Shown one piece after another: positions 2,542 through 37,854 of a DNA stretch of 41,213 bases. The notes beneath the pieces were generated by a model that worked only from the letters and a program-made list of their open reading frames with translations, searched no databases and was not told the DNA's origin. The DNA comes from a bacterium (GTDB lineage: Bacteria > Zixibacteria > MSB-5A5 > GN15 > FEB-12). The stretch lies in the NCBI GenBank assembly GCA_043811375.1, contig JBDRNJ010000022.1:1-41213 (forward strand), in the 5' to 3' direction. Both the position numbers and the translations under genes were made by a program. The first letter of the stretch is position 1; each line of letters opens with the position of its first letter.

Positions 2542-2578
2542 GATTCCTCTCCTTCCCGATCGTAAGAACAGTATATTT

Positions 2579-15364: not shown

Positions 15365-15393
15365 TTCCCATAAGTATCGACTGATCGCTTCAC

Positions 15394-19841: not shown

Positions 19842-21055
19842 ATCTGACCAAACCCGGATCGCAGAAACCATAGTACCATGACCAGGTTACAGACCATCCC
19901 GGTCACCATCCCAAGGGAAATTGTATATAGCGGCGTTCCCGGGTTCAACAATAAAACTGTTACAAAAATCAGCGCGGCAACGACAGAAAACAGCAGAATA
20001 TAGAGGTTTTTATTCATGCGATTAATGTATAACTCGAAGTATGCCACGTAACACCATGCCACTGTGTATATAACAATCATCACGGTAACGGCGTTAATAT
20101 CGACCGTAAACGACAGGTTGAGAAACTTGATAGCGGCCAGGCCGCCAAACACCAGCAGGATGCTGACCGACATCATGGTGGTGTACAGAGCCAGCACTTT
20201 CCGGCTTATCTCAGCCTTAGTATCAATGAAGATTCTCTTGGACAGGTACCCCACTGCCGAGGCATGGGCCAGTTGGATGATAATTGCTACCCGCTGCACA
20301 AACGAAATCTGAAACATCTCTTCCTGGGAAAGGAAATTGCGGGCATAGATCTTGCCGTAGTTGCTGATAAACATGAACAGGAAGATGTTGAGAATAATCG
20401 GCCAGGCAAAAGCCAGTGACTGCCGTAGGTAACCAAGTAAACCGGCTAGATTTATCCGCGACCGCTGCGTAACATAATAGACAAAGGTTACCGCCAGCAA
20501 CGCTGCCTGGCCAACGAACAGGTAGATCAGATCGATACCGCCCAGAACACTCCGGGCCAGAATCAGCAGTAGTATCGTAATGGTGCTAACGGTAATGGAG
20601 AAGGCAAACACTTTGGCCGGTCTGTCGATCAGGCGATAGTAGATAACAAAGAATGCCATAAAGAACATATAAATCGTTCGGATAAAAATATAGAGCCAGG
20701 TGAGAGTGACCTCGACTCCGGCCAGAGCCGCCACCGACAGCAGTGCCAAACCGAGCAATTCATAAGCCGCCAGTTGCAACAGGAACCAGCCCCGAACATC
20801 AGATACCAGCCGCTTGCGATCGGCTGCCTGCCGGTAGGCATAGAGAAAATATTTGCTGACACCGAGTTCAATGGCCACGGCGGCAACAGCGGCGATGGAG
20901 TATATGTATTCAATTTCATTATAGAGGGCTTTGTCCCTGAAGGCATAGAGTACCAACAGGGGTATGGCAAAGGTGAGAGACTTATCCAGGTAATTCAGCA
21001 CGGTGTAGCTGATCAACCCGGACTGTGCGTGAATCAGATCGCCATATCGAGTCAT
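19829..21055 (-). CDS. Wzx-like flippase (408 aa)
   Basis: About 12 TM segments, ELG motif after TM2, SLAFAWPII; position within the locus. Confidence 0.75.
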   Translation of the reverse strand: MTRYGDLIHAQSGLISYTVLNYLDKSLTFAIPLLVLYAFRDKALYNEIEYIYSIAAVAAVAIELGVSKYFLYAYRQAADRKRLVSDVRGWFLLQLAAYELLGLALLSVAALAGVEVTLTWLYIFIRTIYMFFMAFFVIYYRLIDRPAKVFAFSITVSTITILLLILARSVLGGIDLIYLFVGQAALLAVTFVYYVTQRSRINLAGLLGYLRQSLAFAWPIILNIFLFMFISNYGKIYARNFLSQEEMFQISFVQRVAIIIQLAHASAVGYLSKRIFIDTKAEISRKVLALYTTMMSVSILLVFGGLAAIKFLNLSFTVDINAVTVMIVIYTVAWCYVAYFELYINRMNKNLYILLFSVVAALIFVTVLLLNPGTPLYTISLGMVTGMVCNLVMVLWFLRSGFGQICQD

Positions 21056-22914: not shown

Positions 22915-22926
22915 GGTCAGTGCCGT

Positions 22927-23991
22927 TTATTTCCCATCGGAGAGCAAATCCCAGTTCACCGGTGTTCCCCTTTTGATATCTCGGGATGCCTTCCTGCCCA
23001 GGAACACTTCAAAGTATTTAGTCGGCAGACCCAATCCGGGTCTGATGGCACGCAGGTTTTCAGGCGTGAACTCCTGCCCGGCTTTGACGTCGGCGACTAC
23101 ATAAAGTGAGCGTCGAAACTGCAGCGATTTCTTTTCCTTTTCGGTCCGGCCGTAGTGAACCCGGCCCAGCGCCTGCCAGGCGCGTTCGCATTCGAGCACC
23201 AGTTGCCGCAACTCAAGCGGCTCCAGGGAAAAGGCTGAGTCGACGCCACCATCGGCTCGCGCCAGGGTAAAGTGTTTTTCAATGACCGTGGCGCCGAGCG
23301 CCACGGCGGCCACGGCCACGCCGATACCCAGCGTATGATCCGACAGGCCCACTTGCACGTCAAACAGGTCACGCAGGTGAGGAATGGTCAGGATATTGGT
23401 ATTCTCCGGCGAGGCCGGGTAGCTGGATGTGCATTTCAGCAGTATAATATCCCGGCAGCCGGCCTCTCTCGCCGCGCGCACCGTCTCATCGAGTTCGGCC
23501 ACCGTGGCCATGCCGGTGGATATGATCATCGGTTTGCCGGTGGCGGCTACCTTGCGAATCAACGGCAGATCAACGTTTTCAAACGATGCAATCTTGTAGG
23601 CGGGTGCCCGGAGGTTTTCAAGGAAGTCAACCGCAGTGTCGTCAAAGGGCGTGCTGAAAACGATCAGGCCGAGCTCTTGCCCGCGCTCGAATATCGGCTG
23701 GTGCCATTCCCACGGCGTACAGGCCTGGGCGTACAAATTGTAGAGCGACGTGCCCTGCCAGAGGCTGTCGGGGTCATCGATACGAAACTCTCTCTCATCC
23801 AGATCAATCGTCATCGTGTCCGGTGTGTATGTCTGGAGCTTGAGGGCATGAGCACCGGCTTTTGCGGCTGCCTCGACTATCTGAAGTGCCCGTTCAAGCG
23901 ACTGATTATGATTGCCGGACATCTCGGCGACGATAAAGGGATGGTGCTCGGACCCGACTGTATGATGACCTATCTGTATTGCTTGTGGCAT
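22927..23991 (-). CDS. pseI: Pseudaminic acid synthase (354 aa)
   Basis: AEMSGNHN, KLQTYTPDT, YKIASFE, LLKCTSSYP, GLSDHTLG, IEKHFTL..DSAFSL, C-terminal SAF domain; GGAGG RBS. Confidence 0.95.
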   Translation of the reverse strand: MPQAIQIGHHTVGSEHHPFIVAEMSGNHNQSLERALQIVEAAAKAGAHALKLQTYTPDTMTIDLDEREFRIDDPDSLWQGTSLYNLYAQACTPWEWHQPIFERGQELGLIVFSTPFDDTAVDFLENLRAPAYKIASFENVDLPLIRKVAATGKPMIISTGMATVAELDETVRAAREAGCRDIILLKCTSSYPASPENTNILTIPHLRDLFDVQVGLSDHTLGIGVAVAAVALGATVIEKHFTLARADGGVDSAFSLEPLELRQLVLECERAWQALGRVHYGRTEKEKKSLQFRRSLYVVADVKAGQEFTPENLRAIRPGLGLPTKYFEVFLGRKASRDIKRGTPVNWDLLSDGK

Positions 23992-24002
23992 TGGCCTCCT
24001 CC

Positions 24003-24581
24003 TTACGCCGGCTGCAAAGCCTTTCCCGTCAACTGCGCAACGGGCGTATCCCATCCTTGAGTAAGCAGATGTTCAAACCGCGCTCGGTCGCGCATGCGGT
24101 GGCAACTTCCTCCTTCCGGTTGCGGGAACGAGCGGCGTCGCCCTGACCGAATCTCCGGCCAGACCTCCCGAAACAAATTTTCAATGGCTCTGGAAAGTTC
24201 TTCATAGGTTGAACGTAGAGTAGCATCCGGAGGATAAGTAACTTCTTGCTGTGCGAGAATATCGCCGGTGTCTACGCCCTCATCAATGTAATGTATTGTC
24301 ACACCCTTGGGCGTATCTTCAAGAAAGCTCCACAGATTGGGATCCGCCCCACGATTGAACGGCAGGTAAGATATGTGCAAGTTCACCAATCGGCCATGGA
24401 ACCTCCGGAGTACTGCTTCCCTAATAATATACCGGTAGCCGTAGCTAACAATGATATCAACACCGTCAAGTATGTCAGACCCGCCTGACAACCTCTCGTT
24501 GGTGATCTTTACCACATCACCGTACGACTCCAGGTATCCCACAAACTCCGGTCGCGGAGGACCGAGGAGGAGGATCATCAT
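24003..24581 (-). CDS. N10-formyl-THF-dependent sugar N-formyltransferase (PseJ-like, 192 aa)
   Basis: VSYGYRYII, NLHISYLPFNRGADPN, GVTIHYIDEGVDTGDI; ATGA-coupled to pseG. Confidence 0.88.
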   Translation of the reverse strand: MMILLLGPPRPEFVGYLESYGDVVKITNERLSGGSDILDGVDIIVSYGYRYIIREAVLRRFHGRLVNLHISYLPFNRGADPNLWSFLEDTPKGVTIHYIDEGVDTGDILAQQEVTYPPDATLRSTYEELSRAIENLFREVWPEIRSGRRRSFPQPEGGSCHRMRDRARFEHLLTQGWDTPVAQLTGKALQPA

Positions 24582-25690
24582 ATTGAAACCCTCTCCCCAC
24601 ACCGTTCATGGAGGATATTGCAGACGCGTCCAGCACCGCCCCCATCCACCAGACCGACAGCTTTCCTCCTCATGTCGCGGAGCACGAGAGGTTTATCCAC
24701 GAGTTTATTCAGTGCAGTACAAAAATTCTCAATCGTAACTTCCTCCCCCCTACCCAAATAAAGGACGGCTCCAAGCTGGTGTACTTGCTGTGCTATTTCG
24801 ATCTGATTCTCGGCAACGGCAATTACCAAAGCCGGCAGACCGAGGCAGCACCGCTCCCAAGTGGTGGTCCCACCGCCGCCAACAGCCAGATCAGCCCGGA
24901 CCATCAGCTCAGCCATATTCTCCACCTGGTAATGAAGCATGACATTTGGCATACTGCTGCTTGCAGCTTCAATTTGTTCCCGATGCAGATTGGCGCTACC
25001 CACTACTACATCAACGGTAATATCAGATCGTCCTGTCAAGTGAATGGCTTCAAGAGCCTTGGCGGTTTCGTTCGTTGTATCAACCCCACCAAAAAAGATC
25101 AGAATGCGATCAACCCTGTCATTTTTCTCCGGTATCACTTCTCGTGCTGCAATGAACTCCGGGCGCAGCAGAGCGTTCTGAGGTCCCAGCAACAACCGGC
25201 AATGGTCGGGCACCAGCCCGTCATAGCGATGTTCAAGGTTCTCGTACAGGTTCTGATCCAGCAGCAGGTCACAGTCATGTAACCGGTCAGCCAGGTCGTC
25301 AATTACCATGATTTGATTCACCAGCGGACGCAGAACCCGTTCCCAGGTGATGTCCAGGGCGTAATGATCCACTATCAACCAATCAGGTGCCCGAGGCAAG
25401 TCCGCCAGGAGAGATCGGGTCTGACCAACATCGACATCCCTAGGAACACTCAGCCAGGACAGATACTGCTTGCGCTGACCGGGATCATCAAAGGGATGAC
25501 CATCATGCGGAAGACGTTTGACTGTGAATCCCTTCCTCTTAATCATGTCACAGAGATGACCCGGAAACTCCCGACAGATAAAGGTGACCTGCGCTCCGTG
25601 CTCGCGCAGCAGGTGCGCCAGCGTCAGGCATCTCATGACATGCCCGGTGCCGATGCGGTGTGAAGCATCAGAGCGAACAACGATATTCAT
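24578..25690 (-). CDS. pseG: UDP-2,4-diacylamido-2,4,6-trideoxy-beta-L-altropyranose hydrolase (370 aa)
   Basis: RSDASHRIGTGHVMRCLTLA, IVDHY, VIDDLADR, FFGGVD, GGGTTTWERC, AENQ. Confidence 0.92.
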   Translation of the reverse strand: MNIVVRSDASHRIGTGHVMRCLTLAHLLREHGAQVTFICREFPGHLCDMIKRKGFTVKRLPHDGHPFDDPGQRKQYLSWLSVPRDVDVGQTRSLLADLPRAPDWLIVDHYALDITWERVLRPLVNQIMVIDDLADRLHDCDLLLDQNLYENLEHRYDGLVPDHCRLLLGPQNALLRPEFIAAREVIPEKNDRVDRILIFFGGVDTTNETAKALEAIHLTGRSDITVDVVVGSANLHREQIEAASSSMPNVMLHYQVENMAELMVRADLAVGGGGTTTWERCCLGLPALVIAVAENQIEIAQQVHQLGAVLYLGRGEEVTIENFCTALNKLVDKPLVLRDMRRKAVGLVDGGGAGRVCNILHERCGERVSI

Positions 25691-26424
25691 TGCCCATAAG
25701 CCTTCTGTTCTATGTGTGTATTGATTGCCGCCCAATCAGGATGCAGTTCCAGCAGTCTGAGGCAATCGTCAAGCGTAAAGGTCGCCTTGGCGGGATAGAG
25801 AGCTTCGATGATCCGTCTGGCGAGCTCAAAGTCCTCGGCCGTATCCACCGTCCACCGGTGGTGGCTGTGGTCTTTACCCAGAGACACGTTGGCCAACCGA
25901 TACCGCTCCGGCTGCCGATAGATGAAGGGGGTTACATGTTCGCGTTCCGGGCGAGTGGTGGCACTGATAAAGGCTTCATCAAGAACGCGATAAGAAAACA
26001 TCTCGCAGTCCATACCACGAGGATAGGTGCGTTTCAGTGTATTCGAGACATAGTCGTACTTTCCCGCTGTATCGCCATACTTCTCAATCACGGTATCGAT
26101 TACCTGCGGATCAATCAGCGGGCAATCGGCCGAAACCCGTGTTACCAAGTCGGCCTGGTGAATCCGAGCCGTTTCATGATAGCGAGACAGCACATCTTCT
26201 TCAGCACCGCGAAAGACTGCCACACCCATCCGTCGGCACAGGTCAACAATAGGCTCATCGGTAACATTGGTTGTGCAGGCGACAACCAACTCGTCCGCAC
26301 AGCGCACACGCAACAGCCTCTCCAATTGATATTCAAACATCGGCCTGCCCAATATCTGCTTAATTACTTTTCCCGGGAGGCGCGTCGACGTCATCCGTGC
26401 CTGGACAATAACGACCGTCTTCAT
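25687..26424 (-). CDS. Cytidylyltransferase (SpsF-type; fills the PseF role, CMP-Pse synthesis), 245 aa
   Basis: IVQARMTSTRLPGKV, RGAEEDVLSRY, RVSADCPLIDP, REHVTPFI, RWTVDTAEDF. Confidence 0.88.
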   Translation of the reverse strand: MKTVVIVQARMTSTRLPGKVIKQILGRPMFEYQLERLLRVRCADELVVACTTNVTDEPIVDLCRRMGVAVFRGAEEDVLSRYHETARIHQADLVTRVSADCPLIDPQVIDTVIEKYGDTAGKYDYVSNTLKRTYPRGMDCEMFSYRVLDEAFISATTRPEREHVTPFIYRQPERYRLANVSLGKDHSHHRWTVDTAEDFELARRIIEALYPAKATFTLDDCLRLLELHPDWAAINTHIEQKAYGQ

Positions 26425-27716
26425 GGTTCCCTCATCAGGGCCGCTTCCAGTGCCCGGATTACCCTCAGGCAATCGACTTCAGTTAGGTCCGGATACATCG
26501 GCAGGCTGAGCGCTCGAGCGTAGTATTGCTCCGCATGAGGGAAATCGCCCGGCCCGGTTCCGTAACGTTCACGGTAGTAAGGTTGCAGGTGAATCGGTAT
26601 GTAATGCACCTGGGTGCCAATTCCAGCCTCTCGCAGTCTCTTCATAACGACGGCTCGCGGGATGCCATAGTGATCAAAATCGATCAGCACCACGAAAAGA
26701 TGATAGGCGTGTTGCCTGCCCGGCAGCAGCGTCAGTGGCCGTACGAGATCGTTGTCGAAGGTGTCCGCCAGCAACCGGCAATACTCTTCGGCCAATCGGC
26801 GGCGTCGGTTCAGCGACCAGGCCAGACGGCCCAACTGGCTCTTACCGAGGGCCGCTTGTATATCGGTCAGGCGGTAATTGTAACCCAGTTGCTGCATTTC
26901 GTAGTACCAGGGATTGGTAGAGCCGTCCGGCGCCAGTGCCTCCTCCGGGCAGCTAAAATCCTCCTTCTGCATACCGTGATTGCGAAATCGTCTTAGCCGT
27001 CGTGCCAGGTCGGTATCAGAGGTAGTCACAGCCCCACCTTCACCCATAGCCACGTGCTTAACCGGATGAAAAGAGAAAGTAGTCATATCACTGTACGGGC
27101 TTCCTCCCAACCGCCACGACTTCTCGCCATAATCATATTCAGCTCCCAAAGCATGACAGGCGTCATCGACGACCACGGCACCATGTTCGTGGGCCAGCGA
27201 GTATATTTCTGCCAGGTCGACCGGTTGACCGGCCAGATGCACCGGCACGATTGCTTTTATTCTCCGTTCGTGGTCACTTTCGAGGATGCGGGCCAGAGCC
27301 GCCGGGTCCATCAGACCGCTGTCGGCATTGACATCGGCGAAGCGAACATCCGCTCCCACGTAGTGGGCGCAGTTGGCCGAGGCCAGAAACGTAACCGGGC
27401 TGGTTACAATCTCATCGCCCGGTCCCAATCCCAGGGCCAGCATGGCCAGATGCAAAGCGGCCGTACCGGAGGCACAGGCTACGGCTTCAGCAGCGCCGGT
27501 AAGGCGGGCTAATTCATCCTCGAAAGCCTCAATAGCCGGACCCTGTGTCAACCGCTCCGACCGCAGTATCGCTACAACAGCCTGCACATCTTCGTCGGTA
27601 ATGTGCTGACGGCCATAGGGTAAGAAAGGCGGCTGGTGCTCCTGATCGGAGACCGTCGTACCGGCCGGATCGGTGAGGTTTCGCCGACGGCGAGAGACAC
27701 CGGTTTTAGGATTCAA
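26421..27716 (-). CDS. pseC: UDP-4-amino-4,6-dideoxy-L-AltNAc transaminase (DegT family)
   Basis: FLPYGRQHI, LTQGP, SGTAALH, DACHALGA, FSFHPVKH, GYNYRLTDIQAALG; start uncertain (TTG overlapping the pseB stop). Confidence 0.92.
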   Translation of the reverse strand: MNPKTGVSRRRRNLTDPAGTTVSDQEHQPPFLPYGRQHITDEDVQAVVAILRSERLTQGPAIEAFEDELARLTGAAEAVACASGTAALHLAMLALGLGPGDEIVTSPVTFLASANCAHYVGADVRFADVNADSGLMDPAALARILESDHERRIKAIVPVHLAGQPVDLAEIYSLAHEHGAVVVDDACHALGAEYDYGEKSWRLGGSPYSDMTTFSFHPVKHVAMGEGGAVTTSDTDLARRLRRFRNHGMQKEDFSCPEEALAPDGSTNPWYYEMQQLGYNYRLTDIQAALGKSQLGRLAWSLNRRRRLAEEYCRLLADTFDNDLVRPLTLLPGRQHAYHLFVVLIDFDHYGIPRAVVMKRLREAGIGTQVHYIPIHLQPYYRERYGTGPGDFPHAEQYYARALSLPMYPDLTEVDCLRVIRALEAALMREP

Positions 27717-28822
27717 TTGTTACTTCCTCCGTCAACCAACTCCGTGTGCTCTGTCTCACTATTGGTATGGACGACCGAGAGTTGCCGTCGGTTATGCGCA
27801 TGTGAAGGTACTCCAACGGAGAAATTGCCGTCGACATGTTCTTTGATAAGTTCTCGCAATCGATTCACCGAGAGCCAGTCGGAGTTGGTGCCGCTGTTAT
27901 ATTTGAACCCGTCCGGACAGGGGCGGCCACCGAACGCTTCCCGCAGACGCCGGGGATCCCATAACGGCATCGAGGGCAGGATAACATAGTAGTTGTCGAA
28001 CTCGATAGTGTTGAGCGCGTCGGTCTCCGTTATCATTTCCTCGTGCAATTTCTCACCCGGCCTGATGCCGACTATCTCCCGTCGACACTCGGGACCGATA
28101 GCCTCGGCCAGCTCGGTGATCCGGTAGCTGGGAATCTTAGGCACGAACAACTCTCCGCCCCACATGTGGGCCAGAGCATAAAGGACCAGGTCGACCCCTT
28201 CCTGCAGGGTGATATTGAACCGCGTCATGCGCTCATCGGTGATCGGCAGCACTCCCTCGTGCTTCTTTTTCATAAAGAATGGTATCACGCTGCCACGGCT
28301 GCCCATCACGTTGCCGTAACGAACGACCGAAAACTTGATGTCCCGCTTGCCCTTGAAGTTATTAGCCGACGCAAACAACTTGTCCGAACAGAGCTTGGTG
28401 GCGCCATAGAGATTGATCGGCGCCGCAGCCTTGTCGGTGCTGAGAGCGACTACTTTCTGCACCCCCTGATCGATGGCAGCCTCGATTACGTTCTGGGCTC
28501 CGATGATATTGGTTTTGACGGCCTCAAAGGGATTGTATTCAGCGGCCGGAACCTGTTTCAGAGCCGCCGCATGGATGACGATTTCGACCCCCTCCATAGC
28601 TTGCATCAACCGCCGGCGATCCCGCACGTCACCGATGAAATACCGCATCTGGGGATACTTCCGGGTGGATAACAGTTGATCCATCTCAAACTGCTTGAGC
28701 TCATCGCGAGAGAAGATGACCACCCTGCTCACGCGCGGATAGCGTGTCAGAATTGTCTCTACGAACTTCTTTCCAAAAGAACCGGTACCACCGGTTACCA
28801 GAATTGCTTTTCCTGACAGCAT
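27713..28822 (-). CDS. pseB: UDP-GlcNAc 4,6-dehydratase (inverting)
   Basis: TGGTGSFG, SRDELKQ, HAAALKQVPAAEYNP, STDKA, YGATK, RYGNVMGSRGSV, GIRPGEKLHEE. Confidence 0.96.
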   Translation of the reverse strand: MLSGKAILVTGGTGSFGKKFVETILTRYPRVSRVVIFSRDELKQFEMDQLLSTRKYPQMRYFIGDVRDRRRLMQAMEGVEIVIHAAALKQVPAAEYNPFEAVKTNIIGAQNVIEAAIDQGVQKVVALSTDKAAAPINLYGATKLCSDKLFASANNFKGKRDIKFSVVRYGNVMGSRGSVIPFFMKKKHEGVLPITDERMTRFNITLQEGVDLVLYALAHMWGGELFVPKIPSYRITELAEAIGPECRREIVGIRPGEKLHEEMITETDALNTIEFDNYYVILPSMPLWDPRRLREAFGGRPCPDGFKYNSGTNSDWLSVNRLRELIKEHVDGNFSVGVPSHAHNRRQLSVVHTNSETEHTELVDGGSNN

Positions 28823-28891
28823 CTTATCTCCTTTTTATTCCTGTTGCAGGGAACGAGGTGGAGCGGTCAACATCAACTAAAAACAGCAGGT

Positions 28892-29362
28892 TCAGTCATC
28901 GATTCTAAAGCGGCAGTCGTGGTCATCCTCGTAGCGTATTTCATCCACCGGACTCTGTCGGCCCTCACCGGCATAAAGCCGGTTGGGAGCATTGAAGACT
29001 AACCCGTCCACGGCGCCGATATTCCGGTAGGCGTGAACAACACCCGGGGGTACAATAACCAGAACATGCTGCTCTTCACCGACGTCGATGGACCAACTCT
29101 GATCGAAGGTGGGTGAGTCGGAGCGATTGTCCCACAAGTAAAGGCGGAAAGTAGAAGATCCCAGGAAACAGAACAGATCGGCCTGTTCACGGTGCTCGTG
29201 CGGTCCCCGGGTGACACCGGGCCGGGTCATAGAGATATAGCTCATGGTCGGGTGGAACTCGCGCGGTAACTCATCATGACGATACAGTTCCGCCAGCCAG
29301 CCCCGTTGGTCGTGGTGTCTTTGAAATTCCCTGATAATGACACCGTTGATTTCACATTTCAT
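28892..29362 (-). CDS. rmlC: dTDP-4-dehydrorhamnose 3,5-epimerase family (RmlC-like cupin, 156 aa)
   Basis: DQRGWLAE, RGPHEH, WDNRSDSPTF, VPPGVVHAY; ATGA-coupled to rmlD. Confidence 0.85.
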   Translation of the reverse strand: MKCEINGVIIREFQRHHDQRGWLAELYRHDELPREFHPTMSYISMTRPGVTRGPHEHREQADLFCFLGSSTFRLYLWDNRSDSPTFDQSWSIDVGEEQHVLVIVPPGVVHAYRNIGAVDGLVFNAPNRLYAGEGRQSPVDEIRYEDDHDCRFRIDD

Positions 29363-30252
29363 TGTCTGAGCGCTTCTCCTTCCTGCCGCAGGAATTCGTC
29401 CAGAGCCTCCTCCCACGGACGCATTATGTTCAGACCGAGCTTCTTGAGGCACTTGTTTTCAAGGGTTGAGCGATGCGGCCTGGGCGCCGGACGTGGAAAT
29501 TCATCAGTCGAGCAGGGCGTCAACTGTACCGGCATATTCATCTGGTCGAATATCCGACGTGCTACCCCATACCACGTTGTTTCCCCCTCAGCCGTCACAT
29601 GAAAGATACCTTTCAGATTATTGGCTATAATGACACCCGTCTGGCGGGCGATCTCAACCGTCCAGCAGGGGCTGCCCCACTGATCGTCGACTACTTTCAG
29701 TTGTGAGAGCTTCTCTCCCCGACGGCTTTGCTCAATCTGTCGCCGCCCGAGTTGCAGCATGGTGCTCACAAAATTCTTTCCGTTACGGCCATATAACCAG
29801 GCAATTCTGAGCACGGCGTAGTCATCCAATAGCGCCGCCACCGCCATCTCTCCGTCCAGTTTGGTTTGGCCGTAGACCGTCCGGGGTCCGGTGGCATCTG
29901 ATTCGACATACGGAGATGTCTTTGTTCCATCAAAGACATAGTCAGTCGAGTAGTAAACCATCCCGGCGCCGATCTCACGGCAGGCTCGGGCGACATTCTC
30001 AGAACCAACGACATTCACAGCCACGGCTTCCGATCGGTCGGTTTCGCAGCCGTCGACATCAGTACAGGCGGCCGCATGGAGAACGGCGTCGGGCTTAAAT
30101 CGTCGCAGGCATGAAAGCACCGGCTGGTAATCACGGATATCAAGGTCCTCGATATCGACTCCGTTGACCGTATACTGCTGTTTGAGGATGCTGATTAAAT
30201 CGGCACCCAACTGACCCCGGCAGCCGGTTACCAGTACTTTACGAATCGCCAT
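29359..30252 (-). CDS. rmlD: dTDP-4-dehydrorhamnose reductase
   Basis: [37 protein letters not shown]. Confidence 0.95.
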
Positions 30253-31129
30253 CGACCTCGTGCACAACTTCCAAAAGGTATTTCTTGTACGAATTATCGC
30301 CCATGCCGTCCAGGAGCGTCTGCATTTGTTGTCGATTTATGAATCTCATCCGGTAAGCAATTTCCTCGATACAGGCAATTTTCTGGCCCTGCCGCTTCTC
30401 GATGGTAGCTATAAAGTTACAGGCGTCAAGCAGGCTGTCGTGGGTGCCGGTATCAAGCCAGGCGATTCCACGGCCCAGCTTGACCACATTGAGGCGGCCA
30501 CTGGCCAGGTAAGCCCGGTTAACATCGGTAATTTCCAGTTCGCCGCGTGGTGAGGGCTTGAGTTCTTTAGCGATTGACACCACGTCGGAATCATACAGGT
30601 AGAGGCCGGTGACGGCGTAATTGGACCGGGGCTTGATCGGCTTTTCTTCAATGGTGACCGCCCGACCGGCATCATCGAACTCCACCACACCGTAGCGTTC
30701 CGGGTCCCTGACATAGTAACCAAACACCAGTGCACCTTCTCGAAAAGCCCTGGCTTCGCGCAGGAAATCATAGACACCGTAGAAGATATTGTCGCCCAGT
30801 ATCAGCACCACACTATCGTTGCCGATGAACTCTTCACCGATCAGGAAAGCCTGGGCAATCCCTTCCGGCCGGAGCTGCACCCGGTAGGAGAAATTAAGCC
30901 CCAGGGAAGAGCCGTCACTCAGCAGTGACTGGAAACTGGGCATATCCTGAGGGGTGGAAATGATCAGAATGTCCGTAACCCCGAACAACATCAACGTGGA
31001 CAGGGGATGGTAGATCATCGGCTTGTCATATACCGGCAGCAACTGCTTGCAGGCTATCTGTGTTATGGGATATAACCGGCTGCCGGCTCCACCGGCCAGA
31101 ATGATTCCTTTGCGTACGGGTCCTGCCAT
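30239..31129 (-). CDS. rmlA: Glucose-1-phosphate thymidylyltransferase
   Basis: [49 protein letters not shown]. Confidence 0.97.
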
Positions 31130-31138
31130 GCCAATTCC

Positions 31139-32203
31139 TTATCGGTTGGTGTACATTTCCTGGTAGTATTTCCGGTACTGGCCACTAACACAATCCACCA
31201 GCCATTGATTGTTGTCCAGATACCATTGCACTGTCCGGCGGAGACCGTCCTCGAACGTATATTCCGGTTTGAAACCCAGTTCTGCCTGAATGTGAGAGGC
31301 GTCAATTGCATAACGGAGGTCGTGGCCGGGACGATCCCCGACAAACGAAATCAGCCGTTCATGGGGCGGGTCACCCAGCTTCTCATCCATTATCCGACAG
31401 ATCATCCGCACCAGTTCAATGTTTTGGATCTCATTGTTGCCACCGATATTGTACGTGCTTCCCGGCTTACCCCGGTGAAACACCAGGTCCAGAGCGCGGC
31501 AATGATCCTCGACATGCAGCCAGTCCCGAACGTTGCGGCCATCGCCATAGACCGGCAGGGGTAAACCTTCCCGTGCGTTTCTTATCATGAGGGGAATCAG
31601 CTTCTCCGGAAACTGGAACGGCCCGTAGTTGTTGGAACAGTTGGTCGTCACCGTATCCATCCCGTAGGTTCGGTGATAGGCTCGCACCAGGTGATCCCCG
31701 GAGGCTTTCGACGCCGAGTAGGGCGAGTTCGGCCGGTAGGGTGAATCTTCAGTGAACGAACCATCAGCACCCAGCGAACCATAGACCTCGTCGGTCGAAA
31801 CGTGATGAAAGCGAAAACGACCGGCAGTCTTCAACCTGGCCAGCGCCAGTTCCAGCAGATTAAAAGTACCTATAATGTTGGTATGGATGAACTCAGCCGG
31901 TCCCGTTATGGAGCGATCGACGTGTGACTCAGCCGCCAGATGGATGACGGCGTCTACCCGGTGCTTTTCTAGGCAGTCCGCCAACCTGTCCCGATCGCAG
32001 ATATTGATCTTTTCAAAAACGTAGTTGGGAGCCTGCTCCAGCGGTTTCAGATTGGCCAGATTACCGGCGTAGGTCAGGCAGTCCACGTTAACAAACAGGT
32101 AGGCGGGGTACTTCGGCACCAGGTACAGCAACAGGTTGGAACCGATGAACCCGGCTCCGCCGGTTATTATGATGCGCCGGTCAGGCACTTCATCATCTCT
32201 CAT
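31139..32203 (-). CDS. rmlB: dTDP-glucose 4,6-dehydratase
   Basis: [57 protein letters not shown]; exact start uncertain. Confidence 0.96.
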
Positions 32204-32408
32204 AAGGCAAATACACTCCCTTTCATCTACAGCGGTATATATAGGAGAAAGGGGAATGACAGACAATAAAAACATGGGGTAAAAGAACAAACAGTGCTAC
32301 ACCCGTTGGGTTTTCAAACCCGATAGACAACCATCCGGGCGATCCGAAGATCATCTGGTCACAACGAGATCGTTACGATAGTGCCTATCGAGGTGATTCC
32401 GAATAAGG

Positions 32409-32542: not shown

Positions 32543-34267
32543 GTGCCCCGAGCGGCTGATTATACGTCAGGTCGGGTAAACGGGTCCGATGAATCTGGAC
32601 TGGCGGGTTCTGAACATTACCGTATTCTCCGACGAAGAACCACTATTCGATTGGCATTAATCTATCTGAGTCCGGTGGTTATACTCGCCGCATACTTCAT
32701 TCTTCAGTATGACGCAGTTGTTTCTGAAAGTGAACGTCTCCACCTCAGGGCTATTGCCGAAAGCCAGGCCAACACCCTGGATCTGTTCTTATCTGAGAGG
32801 CAAGTCAATCTCTCCAACCTGATTGATGACCCGATGTTCTCAATCCCGCCCACATCCGCCGGTCTGAAAGGTGACCTGATGGGATTGCGCAGAATAAGTG
32901 ACGCCTTTGTTGATATCGACTTTTTCGATTCGTCAGGGGTACGGGTGGCCTATGCCGGACCCTACGAATCTCTTGAGAAACAGGACTACAGGTCGGAGAA
33001 ATGGTACTCCACTCTGAGGGAGCAACAGTCCAGCTTCATCATCACCGATATTTACCTTGGCTTCCGACAGAGACCACATTTCACTATCGCGGTGAGCAGG
33101 GTTACCCGTGAGGGTCCCGTAGTCCTGCGGGCTACTCTCGATCCTCAGAAGATGTATCAGTACATAAGCTCTTTAGAAGGTTCCAACGAAGTAGTCACAT
33201 CAATTATCAATCTGAACGGGATATGCCAGTTGGCTTCGGAGTTGATCTCCAGACCTTTGGACACCAACTCTTTTATTCCACCACGGACCCCTCGGCAGGG
33301 CGCAGCCAGAACCACTGTTGAAAGCTCGTCGTTTACATACGGCTACTCCTGGCTGCACACAGTTGACTGGTCACTGATCATTCAAAAATCTCCCGAACAG
33401 TACCAGGGCTTCTTCTCAGATTTTCGAGTGCGAGTGATTGGTATCGCTGCCGGAATGGTCATCATCGGTTTTGTTGTCATAGTCAATCGAGCTCGGAAAC
33501 GAGTCGAACTTCAGAGAGAATCCGATATCAGCAGGGCTCAGCTCAGCCATGCCACCAAGCTGGCATCAGTGGGTGAACTGGCGGCAGGCATAGCTCACGA
33601 GATCAACAACCCATTGGCTGCCATAAACGAAGAGGCTGGGCTGATGAAAGACCTTATGAACCCAGACCTGGGAGATCCGGTCAAGCCGGAAGAGCTAACC
33701 CACTACCTGGATTCAATTCAGGAGTCTGTTTTCAGGTGTCGGGATATCACTCGCAAGTTATTGGGGTTTATCCGCAGGACGGACATTGATCTCAAAAAAC
33801 ATGACATCCACGAGCTGATCGACGAGGTTGTCGACGGTCTGTTGGGACCCGAGCTGATCGTGTCGAATATTGAGATCGTGAGAAAATACGATACGGACAT
33901 TCCGGAGCTGGTTACCGACGGTAATCAACTGGAACAGGTACTGTTGAATATTCTTAACAACGCCGTGGACGCCATGCACGGTGAACCGGGCAGAATCTCG
34001 ATCGTAACTACCCGACAAGACAAAAGCGTACATATCAGCCTTTCTGACACCGGTAAGGGGATGAATCGGCAGCAGTTGGAAAACATCTTTGTGCCGTTCT
34101 ACACTACCAAGGAGGTTGGCAAAGGGACCGGTCTGGGGCTCTCAGTCAGCTACGGCATTGTCAAGAACCTTGGAGGAAAAATAGAGGTTAACAGCGCTCT
34201 CGGACAGGGGAGTACATTCGAGATAGTGCTTCCCATTAATCAGAAAGTCAGAAGCGCCGAGGTTTAA
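32543..34267 (+). CDS. Membrane sensor histidine kinase with dCache-like domain (NtrB-type core)
   Basis: Two TMs flanking YAGPY..WY..ITDIYLGFR..HF; H box LAAGIAHEINNPL, N box, DTGKGM, FYTTK, GTGLGLS; start uncertain. Confidence 0.93.
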   Translation: MPRAADYTSGRVNGSDESGLAGSEHYRILRRRTTIRLALIYLSPVVILAAYFILQYDAVVSESERLHLRAIAESQANTLDLFLSERQVNLSNLIDDPMFSIPPTSAGLKGDLMGLRRISDAFVDIDFFDSSGVRVAYAGPYESLEKQDYRSEKWYSTLREQQSSFIITDIYLGFRQRPHFTIAVSRVTREGPVVLRATLDPQKMYQYISSLEGSNEVVTSIINLNGICQLASELISRPLDTNSFIPPRTPRQGAARTTVESSSFTYGYSWLHTVDWSLIIQKSPEQYQGFFSDFRVRVIGIAAGMVIIGFVVIVNRARKRVELQRESDISRAQLSHATKLASVGELAAGIAHEINNPLAAINEEAGLMKDLMNPDLGDPVKPEELTHYLDSIQESVFRCRDITRKLLGFIRRTDIDLKKHDIHELIDEVVDGLLGPELIVSNIEIVRKYDTDIPELVTDGNQLEQVLLNILNNAVDAMHGEPGRISIVTTRQDKSVHISLSDTGKGMNRQQLENIFVPFYTTKEVGKGTGLGLSVSYGIVKNLGGKIEVNSALGQGSTFEIVLPINQKVRSAEV

Positions 34268-34322
34268 AAGGGGATCAGAGAGTGAGGAAACAGGTTATCC
34301 TGATATTTTGCTGGAGGTCGTC

Positions 34323-34871
34323 GTGGAAATAAGGAGTGTCAAGGAACTGATGGTGCCCCGTGACCAGTACGCAGTGGTTTCCCAGGAGGCCACCCTGCTG
34401 GAGGCGATCCTGATTATGGAAGAAGCCCAGAAACGGCGTGATCGCCGGTGGCAACCTTTTCGATCTGTGCTGGTAGCCGATGAAAACGACAAAATCGTAG
34501 GCAAACTAGGTCAATTGGCTTTCCTGAAAGCACTCCAACCTCAGCGTGGTGTCCTCCGCGATACAAACAAGCTGGCCAGCGCCGGCGTAAGCGAGCAGAT
34601 GATGACCTCGATGATGGATCATTCCCGATTCTTCCAGGACAACTTATCCGACTTGTGTCTGCGGGCTGCCAATGGGAAGGTTAAGGACGTGATGCACCCC
34701 GTCAGCGAAAGCATTGACGAGAATACTCTGCTGGGAGAAGCCATATCCAAAATAATTCAATGGGAATGCTTGTCTGTCCTGGTGACCAGAGGAACGGAGG
34801 TGGTCGGGTTGTTGCGGCTTTCGGACCTTTGTCTGGAGATAGCGGAGTATATGAAGGACCTTTCAAACTGA
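34323..34871 (+). CDS. CBS-domain pair protein (182 aa)
   Basis: VKELMVP..VS..ATLLEAI..VLV.D..IVG and VKDVMHP..IDE..L.EAI..LVT..VVGLLRLSDL; GGAGG RBS before GTG 34323. Confidence 0.85.
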   Translation: MEIRSVKELMVPRDQYAVVSQEATLLEAILIMEEAQKRRDRRWQPFRSVLVADENDKIVGKLGQLAFLKALQPQRGVLRDTNKLASAGVSEQMMTSMMDHSRFFQDNLSDLCLRAANGKVKDVMHPVSESIDENTLLGEAISKIIQWECLSVLVTRGTEVVGLLRLSDLCLEIAEYMKDLSN

Positions 34872-34898
34872 TCAATATGGGTTAATCGGAGTGAATAA

Positions 34899-36932
34899 AT
34901 GCCCAGAGTACTGCTGATTGATGACGAGGACAAGTTTCGCATATCACTGACACGGCGTCTTAAACTGCATGGCTATGATGCCGTTGATCTGAATAACGGT
35001 GAAGATGCCGTCAAGCTCGTACGGAGCGACATGGATATCGACGTAGTCCTTCTGGACCGCAAAATGCCGGGCCTGAGCGGTGAACAGGTTCTTACGGAAC
35101 TGAAGCGATATCGCCCTGAGCTTCAGATCATCATGCTGACGGGGCACGGGACGATGAAGTCAGCGATGGAAACGGGAAGACTTGATGCCTACACCTACCT
35201 GCAGAAACCATACGATTTCGACAAGCTGACGGAAGTGATTGACGCGGCGCGGAAAGACAAGGTCCATGTGATGGCGCGCCACGAAATCCCGCATATAGAG
35301 AAAGGTTCCGTCCGGAGTTGGCTGAAAGGATCACACAATTCGCGTCCGGGCGTTATTATTCTTGGTTTGATTCTGTTCACTGCGCTTGTCCTGACACCGC
35401 CCCCTGACCGGATGTTACAACTATTGTCTTCACCTAAAACAGGAGAATTAACCGACCCCTCAATGGGTTATGCCGACTACCGGAAGATGCACGATGGAGA
35501 GAACATCGCCGACTATTATAGCCGCACGTACAAGCTGACCGAGACTGTAGTCGACGACAAGGGAAACGAAATCCAGCAATCCCTGAGTCCCCACAATGCC
35601 GCCTTCCGGGCCAAGGTCATGCTGGGCACGCTGATCGTGGCGGCGCTTTTCTGGGCAACCGGTGCGGTGCCGGTGGGTATTACGGCTCTGCTGGTGGGTG
35701 TGTTTATGTACCTCCTGGGAGTGTTGCGTCCCGATGATATCGCCAAAGCTTATTCCAAGGATGCCGTCATATTCATATTCGGTGTTCTCGCCATGTCCAC
35801 TGCCATCACCAAGACAGGCCTGGATAGAAGGATAGGGTTGCTGCTGCTGGGCCCGTCCAAGAATTTGAAACTGCTTCTGTTCCTGTTCCTGCCGATGCTC
35901 GGTATAGCCTGTTCGTTCGTTTCCGAACATGCCCTTATCGCTTTTATTATGCCGCTTTTCATGATGGTATATGCCTCGTCCGTGCGTGCCGCCGGGATCA
36001 AACAGGACAAAGCTCTGGCGGTGATGTTCGTGCTGTCGCTTTGTTATGTAGCCAATTGTGGAGGACCGGGTTCACCGGCTGCCGGTGGACGCAACGCCGT
36101 GATGCTCGGTATCCTTACGGATTACGGCATACCTCCCACTTTCGGGGAGTGGGTTCAGTATGGCCTGCCGTTCGTCCCCGTGATGGCGTTGGTTATTGGC
36201 GCCTACTTCTTCATTGTTTTCCGCCGGAAACTGAAGGTCAAGCGGCTGAACGTGTCGTCTCTGGTCCGCCAGGCGTCGGAGAGGATCGGCCCCATGAACA
36301 AGAATGAATACATCACGGCGATTGTCCTGGTGGGCTTAATCCTGATGTGGATTACGACCAGTGATCTGTTCGGTATGGGAGGACCGATTATATTGTGCCT
36401 GGTTGTTCTCAACATTCTCCGGATTTTACGCTGGCGCGATATTGCCGGTATCCCCTGGGACGTAGTCGCACTGTATGCCAGCGCCTGCGCCATGGGTAAG
36501 GGATTGGCGGTCACCGGCGCAGCACTTTACCTGGCGGACAGTTTCACTTCCCTGTTGCCCGAGTTCTTCCGGAGCGGTGAAGGACTGGCTATCGCGACCA
36601 GCCTGTTTACCGGGATAGCGACAAATTTCATGAGTGACGGCGCCACGGTGTCGGCTATCGGCCCGATTACGATCCCGATGGCCACGATCTCCGGAACTCA
36701 CCCCTGGATGATTGGCCTGGCAACGGCGTTTTCTTCTTCGTTCGCACACATGTTGATCATAGGGACTCCCAACAACGCTATTGCTTATGCCCTGGCCAAG
36801 GACCCACATACCGGAGAGCAGCTGGTAACTCTTTCTGACTTTCTCAAGCATGGCTTTATGATTCTGATTCTATCATTTGCCGTACTTTGGCTGTGGACCT
36901 TTCTTGGGTACTGGCGCTGGATAGGGTTCTAA
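34899..36932 (+). CDS. Response-regulator receiver fused to SLC13/DASS anion permease (677 aa)
   Basis: REC with D8/D9, D53, T81, K103 intact, followed by a multi-TM DASS body (LFWATGAVP, KTGLDRR, GGPGSPAAGGRNA, IPWDVV, GTPNNAI). Confidence 0.9.
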   Translation: MPRVLLIDDEDKFRISLTRRLKLHGYDAVDLNNGEDAVKLVRSDMDIDVVLLDRKMPGLSGEQVLTELKRYRPELQIIMLTGHGTMKSAMETGRLDAYTYLQKPYDFDKLTEVIDAARKDKVHVMARHEIPHIEKGSVRSWLKGSHNSRPGVIILGLILFTALVLTPPPDRMLQLLSSPKTGELTDPSMGYADYRKMHDGENIADYYSRTYKLTETVVDDKGNEIQQSLSPHNAAFRAKVMLGTLIVAALFWATGAVPVGITALLVGVFMYLLGVLRPDDIAKAYSKDAVIFIFGVLAMSTAITKTGLDRRIGLLLLGPSKNLKLLLFLFLPMLGIACSFVSEHALIAFIMPLFMMVYASSVRAAGIKQDKALAVMFVLSLCYVANCGGPGSPAAGGRNAVMLGILTDYGIPPTFGEWVQYGLPFVPVMALVIGAYFFIVFRRKLKVKRLNVSSLVRQASERIGPMNKNEYITAIVLVGLILMWITTSDLFGMGGPIILCLVVLNILRILRWRDIAGIPWDVVALYASACAMGKGLAVTGAALYLADSFTSLLPEFFRSGEGLAIATSLFTGIATNFMSDGATVSAIGPITIPMATISGTHPWMIGLATAFSSSFAHMLIIGTPNNAIAYALAKDPHTGEQLVTLSDFLKHGFMILILSFAVLWLWTFLGYWRWIGF

Positions 36933-36953
36933 GGAAAACATAGGAAGGTGGAT

Positions 36954-37442
36954 ATGTCTGACGGAATTAAACTCCTTATCGTTGATGATGAAATCAAGTT
37001 TCTCAATTCAATCGCCAAACGACTGGAAATGCGAGACTTCGATGTCACCAAGGCAACCAATGGCCAGGAGGCTCTGGAAATTGCCGGGCGGGAAAAATTC
37101 GACCTGGTCTTGCTGGATCTGAAAATGCCCGGACTCAACGGCAAGCAGGTACTCGAAATCCTGAAGAGGAAGCACAAGTTTCTCGAGGTCATCATCATTA
37201 CAGGTCACGGGTCACTTGACTCAGCAGTTGAATGCACACGGCTGGGAGCTTTCGACTACCTGCCCAAGCCGTACGAGTTTGAGAGTCTCCTCGAGAAGCT
37301 CCAGAAGGCGTATGAGGCCAGGCTGGAAAAGAAGTTCGAGGCTGATCAGGATCGACTGGAAAAAATCAGCAAGCTGGCCACCGGCCACAGCGCCCTGGGT
37401 ATTCTGCGTGAACTGCGCAAGCTGGACGACGAAGAGAAGTAA
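36954..37442 (+). CDS. Single-domain response regulator with short helical tail (162 aa)
   Basis: LLIVDDE, LLDLKMPG, ITGHG, YLPKP; no DNA-binding domain. Confidence 0.92.
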   Translation: MSDGIKLLIVDDEIKFLNSIAKRLEMRDFDVTKATNGQEALEIAGREKFDLVLLDLKMPGLNGKQVLEILKRKHKFLEVIIITGHGSLDSAVECTRLGAFDYLPKPYEFESLLEKLQKAYEARLEKKFEADQDRLEKISKLATGHSALGILRELRKLDDEEK

Positions 37443-37454
37443 ACGCGGCTTCTG

Positions 37455-37605
37455 TTCGAACCCCGGCGTTCACCAGTGACTGAGCTTCCAGCAAGTACCT
37501 GGTGCGAATGAGAATACTCAGGCAGGGAGCAACGCTTCCGGCTGCCTTTACGGCCCGCTCAATCACGTCCGGGTCGTTGATGACAATCACAAACTCCTTT
37601 GCCCG
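37455..37605 (-). pseudogene. Remnant of a Kef-type antiporter TrkA-N (KTN) domain
   Basis: RAKEFVIVINDPDVIERAVKAA..APCLSILIRTRYLLEAQSLVNAG matches the C-terminal part of KefB/KefC KTN domains; no intact start or remainder. Confidence 0.6.
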
Positions 37606-37721
37606 TGAAGCAACCGGGTTGTCAATCACAACCTAACTGGTTATATCATTGAAAAATGCCGGTCCGCAGTCCGGACAAGCCCTGCGCTCGTTTTTGGGGA
37701 GTTTGGTTGCCGGTAATAAAA

Positions 37722-37794
<73 letters not shown>

Positions 37795-37854
37795 ATCGTC
37801 AGTTAAGACTCAGATTCGGAATTAATCAGGTTATCGACGGATGTCAACCGAAAT

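Follow-up and report, generated by a model that had tools for sequence, protein, structure and literature searches.

A receiver–DASS carrier fusion in a sensor kinase operon of a zixibacterium and its predicted role in sulfate uptake

Introduction

Several two-component systems are coupled to transporters, among them DctA/DcuB–DcuS, PstSCAB–PhoU–PhoR and CbrA, and in these systems a kinase is functionally linked to a transporter of the same solute. DctA and DcuB act on DcuS, and PstSCAB–PhoU on PhoR, as co-sensors; the transporter informs the kinase, and transcription is the output. In yeast, the phosphate carrier Pho90, a DASS-fold oxyanion carrier, bears a regulatory SPX domain at its cytoplasmic N-terminus.

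The molecular basis of sulfate uptake in dissimilatory sulfate reducers, including their change between cheap low-affinity and costly high-affinity transport, is presented as unsolved in PMC5840216. Woehlbrand et al. 2025 (PMC11887813) describe clusters of sulfate-reducing Desulfobacteraceae in which genes for DASS 'sulfate transporters' lie together with those for Cache kinases, response regulators and CBS proteins, the same gene set as in the operon studied here. Their section on these clusters reports a shared Cache sensor, for which sulfate is suggested as the effector, and proposes a further level of control by the CBS proteins. The regulators are described there as WalR-type and control is depicted as transcriptional; a carrier-fused receiver goes unmentioned. 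A protein of this architecture from Desulfobacula toluolica Tol2, CCK80087.1 (UniRef100_K0NN26, 691 aa), is on record by annotation only, as a 'response regulator modulated sodium/sulfate symporter'. Our literature searches found no experimental study of the fusion or its mechanism, no characterised response regulator with a transporter as output and no characterised sulfate-binding dCache domain.

Here we analyse such an operon on a Zixibacteria contig (JBDRNJ010000022.1; the window is the whole stretch of 41,213 nucleotides). An earlier note made from the sequence had singled it out as the best candidate for an undescribed system in the window. This is too strong, as the gene mix has been published (PMC11887813) and the fusion annotated in D. 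toluolica; only the mechanism is off the record. The note also remarked that similar gene mixes occur in anaerobic Desulfobacterota. Unlike the Desulfobacteraceae clusters as drawn in that section of PMC11887813, the present operon has no DNA-binding domain on either receiver, and its host lies outside Desulfobacterota.

Results

The operon comprises four co-oriented frames on the + strand, 21–55 nt apart, at 32543–37442 (Table 1), in agreement with the earlier reading, and it is syntenic in relatives. Where the available DNA reaches far enough, 67 of 69 loci have the kinase gene upstream of the fusion, 68 of 72 have the free receiver gene downstream of it, and 51 of 63 have all four genes together. 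In the Desulfobacula-type loci examined, the kinase is co-oriented upstream of 17 of the 18 called fusions. A recent insertion of the operon beside tRNA-Phe is not supported, as GC content is unremarkable and a relative (L031) has the same flanking genes.

Table 1 Features of the operon and its upstream region
Feature	Position	Strand	Description and basis
Rex-like palindrome TTATGA-N6-TCACAA	32435..32452	.	consensus scan, 1 mismatch
dCache-type membrane histidine kinase	32543..34267	+	574 aa; profile search
Stand-alone CBS-pair protein	34323..34871	+	two CBS stretches by Pfam profile search
Receiver::DASS fusion	34899..36932	+	677 aa, single uninterrupted frame
Fusion, N-terminal receiver, aa 1–127	34899..35279	+	Response_reg, aligned homologs; loop charge bias
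Fusion, DASS/SLC13-fold carrier	35280..36932	+	Na_sulph_symp, AlphaFold2 model, Foldseek
Free receiver	36954..37442	+	162 aa; two-helix C-terminal tail

The Pfam Response_reg match covers aa 4–114 of the fusion and includes an acidic pocket (D8-D9-E10), the phospho-acceptor D53 (35055–35057), T81, K103 and a long α5. The receiver had been called intact, and its D53, T81 and K103 indeed stand at the positions then given; together with P104 they are present in 303/303 full-length fusion homologs from two branches. All of the 120 top listed homologs span the full length, at 71–88% identity, and the fusion is therefore not a product of read-through; with the phospho-site invariant as well, an assembly or read-through artefact was rejected. 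The charge bias of the loops predicts a cytoplasmic receiver.

The carrier part has a DASS fold with unusual motifs. Na_sulph_symp (PF00939) matched aa 237–676 with 139 bits against a cut-off of 27, and TIGR00785 (dass) scored 173.1 bits, below its curated cut-off of 198.6. The carrier consists of TM1, an acidic external insert of ~65 aa and a core spanning aa 237–676. When the AlphaFold2 model of the fusion (pLDDT 81) was searched with Foldseek, the top rows for the carrier were all DASS proteins, with human NaS1 first (8y5w: E 2e-16, TM by target 0.71) but barely ahead of dicarboxylate carriers (E 2e-14). NaS1 (SLC13A1), VcINDY and other DASS proteins (TC 2.A.47) share with it the fold and the repeat architecture with two hairpins; the carrier differs from them in its ~21% identity, its near-invariant Arg398 in L5ab, its fused receiver and its external insert, and in having SEH and SDG instead of SNT. 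The positions of the two SNT motifs, which mark the hairpin tips of Na+-coupled DASS cotransporters (VcINDY, NaS1, NaDC), read S342-E343-H344 and S579-D580-G581, and the motif set SEH/GGRN/SDG/GTPNN that replaces the canonical motifs is nearly invariant across the 303 homologs. Because both SNT motifs are replaced, we place the carrier in a DASS-fold subfamily and not among the canonical members. R398 and H344 are near-invariant among fusion homologs; in LaINDY-type DASS exchangers, an Arg and a His fill the Na1 and Na2 sites (PMC7553777). Sulfate transport by NaS1 needs both SNT motifs (PMC11584011).

The fusions form one clade in the carrier tree (UFBoot 93–99). CCK80087.1, 58% identical over 674 aa, shares the four carrier motifs and the phospho-site; in its Desulfobacula-type branch, a CBS gene rarely stands between kinase and carrier (1/18). 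CCK80087.1 may correspond to TOL2_19410, which a passage of PMC5840216 reports in the membrane proteome; at 691 aa it is exactly as long as the maximum stated there for that DASS group. No D. autotrophicum protein is named among the listed matches, and none of these tied the fusion to HRM2_38230, HRM2_38270 or HRM2_38300, locus tags with published expression data. Related combinations of the same parts recur, namely a REC-CBS protein beside an unfused DASS carrier and a USP::DASS fusion, as would be expected under protein-level control.

The kinase has the order TM, periplasmic dCache-type sensor, TM, HisKA (H352) and HATPase_c. HisKA and HATPase_c exceeded their Pfam cut-offs, whereas dCache_1 (PF02743) reached 30 bits, below its cut-off of 45; the dCache assignment comes from ESM Atlas features (0.97) and from a match of the model to dCache_1 clusters (TM 0.83–0.91). 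The H-E-I-N-N phospho-His motif and the sensor residues R175, H179 and R196 are invariant in 56/56 operon kinases, and the resulting Arg/His/Arg pocket would bind an external sulfur oxyanion. The sensor domain has only two paralogs in the host genome: one belongs to a DASS cluster that also encodes an anion porin, the other to a SulP cluster; the paralog on contig C84 exceeds the PF02743 cut-off.

We surveyed 251 genomes of the host phylum, 94 with dsrA and/or aprA and 157 without. An intact fusion was present in 62/94 of the former and 0/157 of the latter, and the sensor type in 86/94 and 1/157; the surveyed genomes are kin, so this co-occurrence does not amount to 251 independent events. A fusion match is missing from the other 32 of the 94. 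The distribution tracks dsrA/aprA even within genera. Among fusion-bearing genomes of mixed named phyla, dsrA was found in 47/50 and aprA in the other three. One of the 157 (G017, 99% complete), in which dsrA, dsrB and aprA were not found, holds a remnant of the locus: the carrier is deleted between the two receivers and the CBS gene is frameshifted. Co-occurrence with dsrA/aprA narrows the likely substrate to sulfate or a similar sulfur oxyanion, and since the fusion appears only alongside these genes among the genomes checked, direct tuning of sulfate uptake, and not control through expression, seems likely. Such a distribution would also result from any other trait tied to sulfate respiration, for instance one involving sulfite, thiosulfate or an organic acid.

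The cargo and signal might be an organic di- or tricarboxylate, or phosphate, used by sulfate reducers, with gating otherwise as proposed. Carboxylates are the cargo of most characterised DASS proteins, the best PDB sequence matches of the carrier are NaDC1 and VcINDY, and databases name homologs, by homology, 'sodium-dependent dicarboxylate transporter'. We consider this highly improbable: the carboxylate-binding SNT motifs are absent from the carrier, whereas a canonical SNT paralog sits on contig C56 of the same genome; sensor paralogs flank SulP and other DASS genes with the His/Arg motif; and the distribution follows dsrA/aprA as described above.

Both operon receivers look like substrates of the operon kinase. 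At four α1 positions, which we take from Spo0F numbering as docking positions and which were picked after both receiver sequences had been inspected, the residues K-F-S-R occur in only these two of the 51 receivers of the host genome. Every other receiver has at most two of the four, and proteins of 440–480 aa (NtrC-sized) at most one; within this branch only F13 and R20 are nearly fixed. The claim that neither receiver carries an output domain also stands. Pfam found none on either, NCBIfam matches were receiver-only and below cut-off, and the operon lacks a DNA-binding output of the kind that transcription-factor regulators (OmpR/WalR, NtrC, NarL) carry at the C-terminus. A fold search of the free receiver matched its receiver part only and barely probed the ~40-aa tail.

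These data bear on the model put forward for Desulfobacteraceae DASS clusters in the section cited above (PMC11887813): sulfate is sensed by the kinase, and signalling through the receivers leads to expression of transporter genes at the level of transcription. In the present operon this would happen in trans, by way of a sigma-54 activator or some other factor, and the fused receiver would be secondary. On contig C84, the gene for a sigma-54 activator without a receiver is oriented divergently to the sister cluster, sigma-54 ATPase genes lie within 10 kb of 6/20 Desulfobacula-type loci and NtrC-sized proteins near 9/80 other fusion loci, and expression of D. autotrophicum DASS genes varies with sulfate according to a passage of PMC5840216. 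However, apart from the scarcely probed tail there is no sign of a DNA-binding domain on either receiver, the docking residues are absent from all NtrC-sized receivers of the genome, and the model leaves a membrane-bound receiver with an invariant phospho-site unexplained. We therefore judge it improbable.

The free receiver was called a single-domain receiver. It has no Pfam output domain, consistent with that description, but a conserved ~40-aa C-terminal tail of two helices, modelled with low confidence, had been missed. D55, T83 and K105 are invariant in 56 members, and mean column identity is 0.78, against 0.73 for the fused receiver. Five genomes retain an intact kinase and free receiver with neither carrier nor CBS protein; the pathway therefore has an output independent of the fusion. 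This corrects the earlier description of the transporter as the only visible output. It also means that a role of the free receiver as phosphate sink, one of the two suggested (the other being relay), is not its whole story.

The same five genomes are consistent with a different arrangement, in which the carrier is a co-sensor whose receiver, depending on how transport is running, holds on to the kinase or draws off its phosphate; the free receiver, acting on some other protein, would then be the true output. Conservation of the free receiver equals or exceeds that of the fused one and extends to its tail; the two receivers, with the same docking residues, would compete; and two distant fusions (P0128, P0140) keep the receiver although their carrier motifs are eroded. 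Against this, the carrier motifs are nearly invariant among the 303 homologs, two loci (L029, L082) keep CBS protein and fusion without an adjoining kinase or free receiver, and a few further loci lack the free receiver after the fusion. Moreover, in a sister carrier the place of the receiver is taken by a USP domain, as would fit a cap that regulates transport. We regard the co-sensor arrangement as rather doubtful.

For the CBS protein, a GTG start behind GGAGG is likely and gives 182 aa; the longest frame, from a TTG at 34308, gives 187 aa. In the 187-aa numbering, D173 is found in 43/45 and R170 in 44/45 aligned members. The Asp of the CBS motif is the ribose-binding residue; it is kept at one putative nucleotide site and absent from the other, which is degenerate. 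An assignment to the c-di-AMP-binding CbpB was not accepted (22 bits against a cut-off of 125). The protein had been proposed as a component of the system, and it is present in 61/69 loci but dispensable, lying between kinase and carrier in 1/18 Desulfobacula-type loci. It is best seen as a non-obligatory subunit, possibly one through which an adenylate signal enters.

Among the neighbours of 80 loci, the four core genes aside, each cluster is found at 9 loci at most. Receiver-only proteins such as RssB and CpdR act as adaptors elsewhere, and with the conserved tail of the free receiver in mind, phosphorylation could control lifetime or assembly of the carrier and not its transport cycle; the receivers would then be tags or adaptors that direct it to proteolysis or into a complex. 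The frequent neighbours include neither a protease nor an adaptor gene, and we hold this to be very unlikely.

A redox input through Rex had been proposed. The Rex-like box, scanned with the Rex consensus (TTGTGA-N6-TCACAA), overlaps a sigma-70-like −10 hexamer ~90 nt upstream of the kinase; within the window alone it is at chance level (1 match against 1.63 expected at ≤2 mismatches). The host genome encodes two rex genes and has 24 sites with ≤1 mismatch, this one among them, including those before sat, qmoA and both rex genes; sat and qmoA are known Rex targets in Desulfovibrio (PMC4045070). Across loci, a box with ≤2 mismatches was found in 12/54 kinase upstream regions, 0/54 internal controls and 11/1080 shuffles. 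The input thus has a box here but not in most relatives, and we rejected it as a family-wide feature. Rex may set operon expression in some lineages.

Discussion

On balance, we favour the reading in which the kinase switches uptake by phosphorylating the receiver built into the carrier, a prediction drawn from sequence and models. In this scheme the kinase would sense a sulfur oxyanion outside the cell and then phosphorylate the carrier's receiver at D53. Sulfate is probably both signal and cargo; thiosulfate or sulfite in both roles is unlikely. The phosphorylated receiver would raise or lower sulfate transport with no need for fresh gene expression. For this, receivers would pair across the carrier dimer or dock on its cytoplasmic face, restricting elevator movement. 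In an underpowered coevolution analysis of receiver and carrier (303 sequences, effective ~70), the top inter-domain pairs, such as Q63-T304 and V64-K321, were indistinguishable from phylogenetic noise.

The likeliest role is that of an accessory, costly high-accumulation carrier, to be shut when sulfate is plentiful, although whether phosphorylation switches it on or off is a guess. High-accumulation sulfate uptake is turned off at high sulfate according to a part of PMC5840216, in which the nearest published expression datum, that for HRM2_38300, is given contradictory directions of regulation. The kinase would likely phosphorylate the free receiver too and so act on a second protein target, for which a candidate is the receiver-less CBS-DASS pair carried by most of these sulfate reducers. 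It is possible, if only as a tentative extension, that a sulfate-binding dCache kinase switches high-accumulation uptake by the carrier and, by way of the free receiver, adjusts another sulfate carrier in the reverse direction.

This predicted control differs from that of known relatives. Pho90, which was matched in both sequence and fold searches, is controlled through a ligand-binding SPX domain, whereas the fusion would be controlled by His-Asp phosphorylation. In DctA/DcuB–DcuS, PstSCAB–PhoU–PhoR and CbrA the transporter informs the kinase; here it carries the phospho-acceptor itself.

If the favoured reading is true, the response regulator of a two-component system would be a secondary transporter, its kinase would have a dCache domain that senses sulfate, and the transcription-only model published for such clusters would need correction. 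Sulfate uptake and its switching set sulfate-reduction rates in sediments. The operon offers candidates for the carrier, the sensor and the switch residue, and the cultured D. toluolica Tol2 has an ortholog of the fusion. Under the tentative extension given above, the operon would provide the molecular switch for high- and low-affinity sulfate uptake, common to Desulfobacterota and uncultured dsr-bearing Zixibacteria.

The operon and its conserved core

The four genes of the operon lie on a single strand, spaced 21–55 bases apart, and both their set and their placement bear out the earlier note, as judged from the reading frames and Pfam domains. In the ESM Atlas (features and model), the kinase sensor grouped with dCache_1 domains, mainly from Thermodesulfobacteriota. 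Two branches of the receiver::DASS fusion were surveyed. Of 127 Zixibacteria-type loci found, 80 were kept, and each count covers the loci with enough flank: the kinase lies upstream of the fusion in 67/69, the CBS gene upstream in 61/69 and the free receiver downstream in 68/72, with the complete four-gene set in 51/63. No other gene cluster occurred in more than 9 of the 80 loci when further conserved neighbours were sought. Two loci (L029 and L082) have the CBS gene and fusion with neither kinase nor free receiver adjoining. For the Desulfobacula type, 20 of 58 metagenome loci were picked by length, and the 18 with a called fusion were counted by eye from maps. A co-oriented kinase lies upstream of 17, a receiver-only gene comes next after 13, and one has a REC-CBS fusion; a sigma-54 ATPase gene lies within 10 kb in 6/20 loci. 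Because a CBS gene stands between kinase and carrier in only one of these 18 fusions, versus the kinase in 17, the conserved core is kinase, receiver::carrier and free receiver. The CBS protein, which the earlier note had made a system component, is thus regularly present in the Zixibacteria type yet optional. A neighbourhood survey of REC-SLC13 fusions had been called for in that note, and the arrangement proved real and widespread, not a one-off.

Locations of the operon, of the other features of the window and of related clusters on other contigs (C4, C30, C84) of the host genome, G000
Feature	Location	Strand	Content or basis
Serpin	1228-2643	-	Pfam
RtcB ligase	2704-4182	+	Pfam
AbiJ_NTD3 + Abi_C protein	7606-8538	-	Pfam
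ECF sigma factor with FlgD-Ig protein	10383-12355	+	Pfam
tRNA-Tyr	12512-12594		
Surface-polysaccharide cluster	12716-32290	-	Wzz, glycosyltransferases, NeuB, cytidylyltransferase, DegT aminotransferase, dehydratase, rfb/rml genes
Histidine kinase	32543-34267	+	Pfam: HisKA, HATPase_c, sub-threshold dCache_1
CBS protein	34323-34871	+	Pfam: two CBS stretches
Receiver::DASS fusion	34899-36932	+	Pfam: Response_reg + Na_sulph_symp
Free receiver	36954-37442	+	Pfam: Response_reg alone
87-aa frame	37366-37629	-	
tRNA-Phe	37721-37795		
Subtilase, cut by contig end	39588-41213	+	Pfam
C84 sister cluster (L084)	G000:C84:78565-91598		dCache kinase, REC-REC, unfused 615-aa DASS, REC-CBS, O/P-type porin
C4 cluster, same sensor type	G000:C4:137618-144617		414-aa protein with C-terminal receiver, kinase, receiver, truncated kinase, receiver, SulP-like carrier
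CBS-DASS pair without kinase (L085)	G000:C30:30915-33041		

Elsewhere in the window, the 87-aa frame just past the operon looks on visual comparison like the tail of a Kef-type potassium transporter; it matched nothing in a Pfam search and is perhaps a gene fragment. The NeuB/cytidylyltransferase/DegT/dehydratase set is pseudaminic-acid-like, and the AbiJ_NTD3/Abi_C gene is likely a phage defence gene.

Conservation and phylogeny of the fusion

The best 120 homologs among the matches listed are full length and 71–100% identical to the fusion; the nearest named ones in that set, at 88% identity, are labelled Candidatus Zixiibacteriota. The second branch comprises proteins of 680–695 aa, whose named members are Desulfobacterales, Desulfobacula, Desulfosarcina and Desulfatiglans. 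An alignment of 303 full-length proteins from the two branches shows no substitution at D53, T81, K103 or P104, upholding the intact receiver seen earlier, and D8/D9 are absent from just one row, which is N-truncated. Judged from these alignments, the fusion is conserved and of long standing. Intact-receiver fusions fall into a single clade (UFBoot 93) in a phylogeny of 45 carrier cores, nested in a wider His/Arg-motif DASS group. Sister proteins either lack an N-terminal domain or carry a degenerate receiver together with changed carrier motifs (P0123) or a USP domain where the receiver would be (P0129). Two further proteins, P0128 and P0140, retain the receiver with eroded carrier motifs. 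Because Phycisphaerales-, Acidobacteriota- and Polyangiaceae-labelled proteins nest within Zixibacteria-type sequences, with weak internal support, the tree suggests that the module was transferred between lineages.

Association with sulfate respiration

Besides two rex genes, the host genome, whose contig C22 is the window in its entirety, carries dsrAB, aprA and sat. For Zixibacteria, which are not usually regarded as sulfate reducers, the share of dsrA/aprA genomes is large: among 251 sampled genomes of the phylum, each at least 80% complete, DsrA is encoded in 91 and AprA in 88, giving 94 with either or both (hereafter reducers) and 157 without. A fusion query of the N-terminal 267 residues matched 63 genomes, 62/94 reducers and 1/157 others, and this pattern splits within three genera (g13, g16 and g20), the sampled genomes being kin and not independent. 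The sensor domain matched 86/94 reducers versus 1/157 others, and the free receiver 66/94 versus 0/157. From the genomes of the 80 loci, 50 were taken, including every one labelled as another phylum; in this set, which overlaps the phylum sample, 47 have dsrA and the other 3 aprA. These counts are good comparative evidence that the operon concerns sulfate uptake in sulfate reducers.

The single exception, G017 (99% complete), in which dsrA, dsrB and aprA were sought and none was found, has a remnant operon at a contig end (C40, L083:9337-10535) with a frameshifted CBS gene. Its chimeric receiver is of fused type in the first half (63% to fused receivers versus 42% to free) and of free type in the second (83% to free versus 48% to fused), so the carrier appears to have been deleted between the two receivers; alternatively, the remnant may be a misassembly.

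The Rex input proposed in the earlier note stood in part. The Rex-like box at 32435 is of a kind found at chance-level frequency within the window, and G000 has 24 sites with at most one mismatch, some of them ahead of sat, qmoA and each of the two rex genes. In Desulfovibrio alaskensis, Rex targets sat and qmoABCD, according to passages of PMC4045070. Across loci, the box occurs in 12/54 kinase upstream regions versus 0/54 internal controls and 11/1080 shuffles, which indicates that it is real in a subset of loci and not a family trait. Six such boxes lie in about 430 intergenic bases at G000:C84:106087-106519.

Kinase and receiver without the carrier

In five reducer genomes (G097, G133, G111, G073 and G131), the free receiver comes directly after the orthologous kinase. 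Both are intact, and the CBS gene and fusion are cleanly missing from the locus. These free receivers are 70–74% identical to that of the operon, and the top DASS match in the same genomes is the C30-type pair, at 26–27% identity. Because the five keep kinase and free receiver without the carrier, the free receiver has a task independent of it, and the carrier does not hold as the sole visible output, as first read. TauE/TSUP genes adjoin the free receiver in 3/5 of these loci (Pfam run on two). Its C-terminus, about 40 residues in two low-confidence helices, is conserved in both branches; a DNA-binding domain was sought in this protein and none was recognised. According to the main rival reading, the carrier would be a co-sensor and the free receiver the sole output.

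G000 contains just two paralogs of the sensor domain, in the C84 and C4 clusters. In the former, a divergent, receiver-less sigma-54 activator precedes the kinase, and the cluster continues with apparent sulfhydrogenase-type hydrogenase genes, judged by eye. C30-type orthologs occur in 82/94 reducers versus 5/157 others and share a contig with dsrA in several reducers; this pair looks like a housekeeping carrier, a candidate for sulfate. A canonical SNT paralog of the carrier is present on contig C56.

Anatomy of the fusion and its partners

The modelled fusion (pLDDT 81, pTM 0.72) has a receiver with a long α5 that leads into the first TM helix, then an acidic insert of 65 residues and finally the DASS core. 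Membrane protein loops are oriented by the positive-inside rule, and the loop charge distribution would put the receiver on the cytoplasmic side and the insert outside. The top Foldseek match is human NaS1, with dicarboxylate carriers close behind. Sulfate transport by NaS1 requires both SNT motifs (part of PMC11584011), whereas the two positions in the fusion read SEH and SDG. Arg398 in L5ab is invariant. The carrier's Arg and His, predicted from sequence to lie close to the substrate site, would suit an oxyanion cargo and recall the Arg/His cation surrogates of DASS exchangers (described in a section of PMC7553777). R175, H179 and R196 of the sensor are invariant in 56/56 kinases and common to both G000 paralogs, suiting a predicted anion ligand. 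Among 51 receivers in G000, only the operon's two have K-F-S-R at four α1 positions, selected with both sequences already in view, which we take to be kinase-specificity sites by Spo0F numbering.

Proposed mechanism and significance

Most likely, the kinase would read external sulfate and phosphorylate D53 of the fused receiver, directly changing carrier activity, and the free receiver would relay this signal to another protein. The earlier note regarded the system as undescribed, which does not hold: UniRef lists the Desulfobacula toluolica ortholog, 58% identical across 674 aa, as 'Response regulator modulated sodium/sulfate symporter', and a section of PMC11887813 describes DASS gene clusters that also encode Cache kinases, regulators and CBS proteins, proposing transcriptional control for them. 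Group Cii of PMC5840216, as far as its excerpts go, comprises 474–691-aa DASS proteins of sulfate reducers, including genes induced at low sulfate; the paper's statements on HRM2_38300 are contradictory. A literature search, with most subscription journals outside its scope, found no study of a receiver::DASS fusion.

Since sulfate reducers switch off high-accumulation uptake at plentiful sulfate, saving energy (passages of PMC5840216), an accessory carrier with a built-in switch, in two thirds of reducers, fits the role of switchable high-accumulation uptake. Collectively, the arrangement is already annotated; the variant of two-component control is new and its function predicted, and a cultured species offers a clear route to testing control of sulfate uptake by the fusion.
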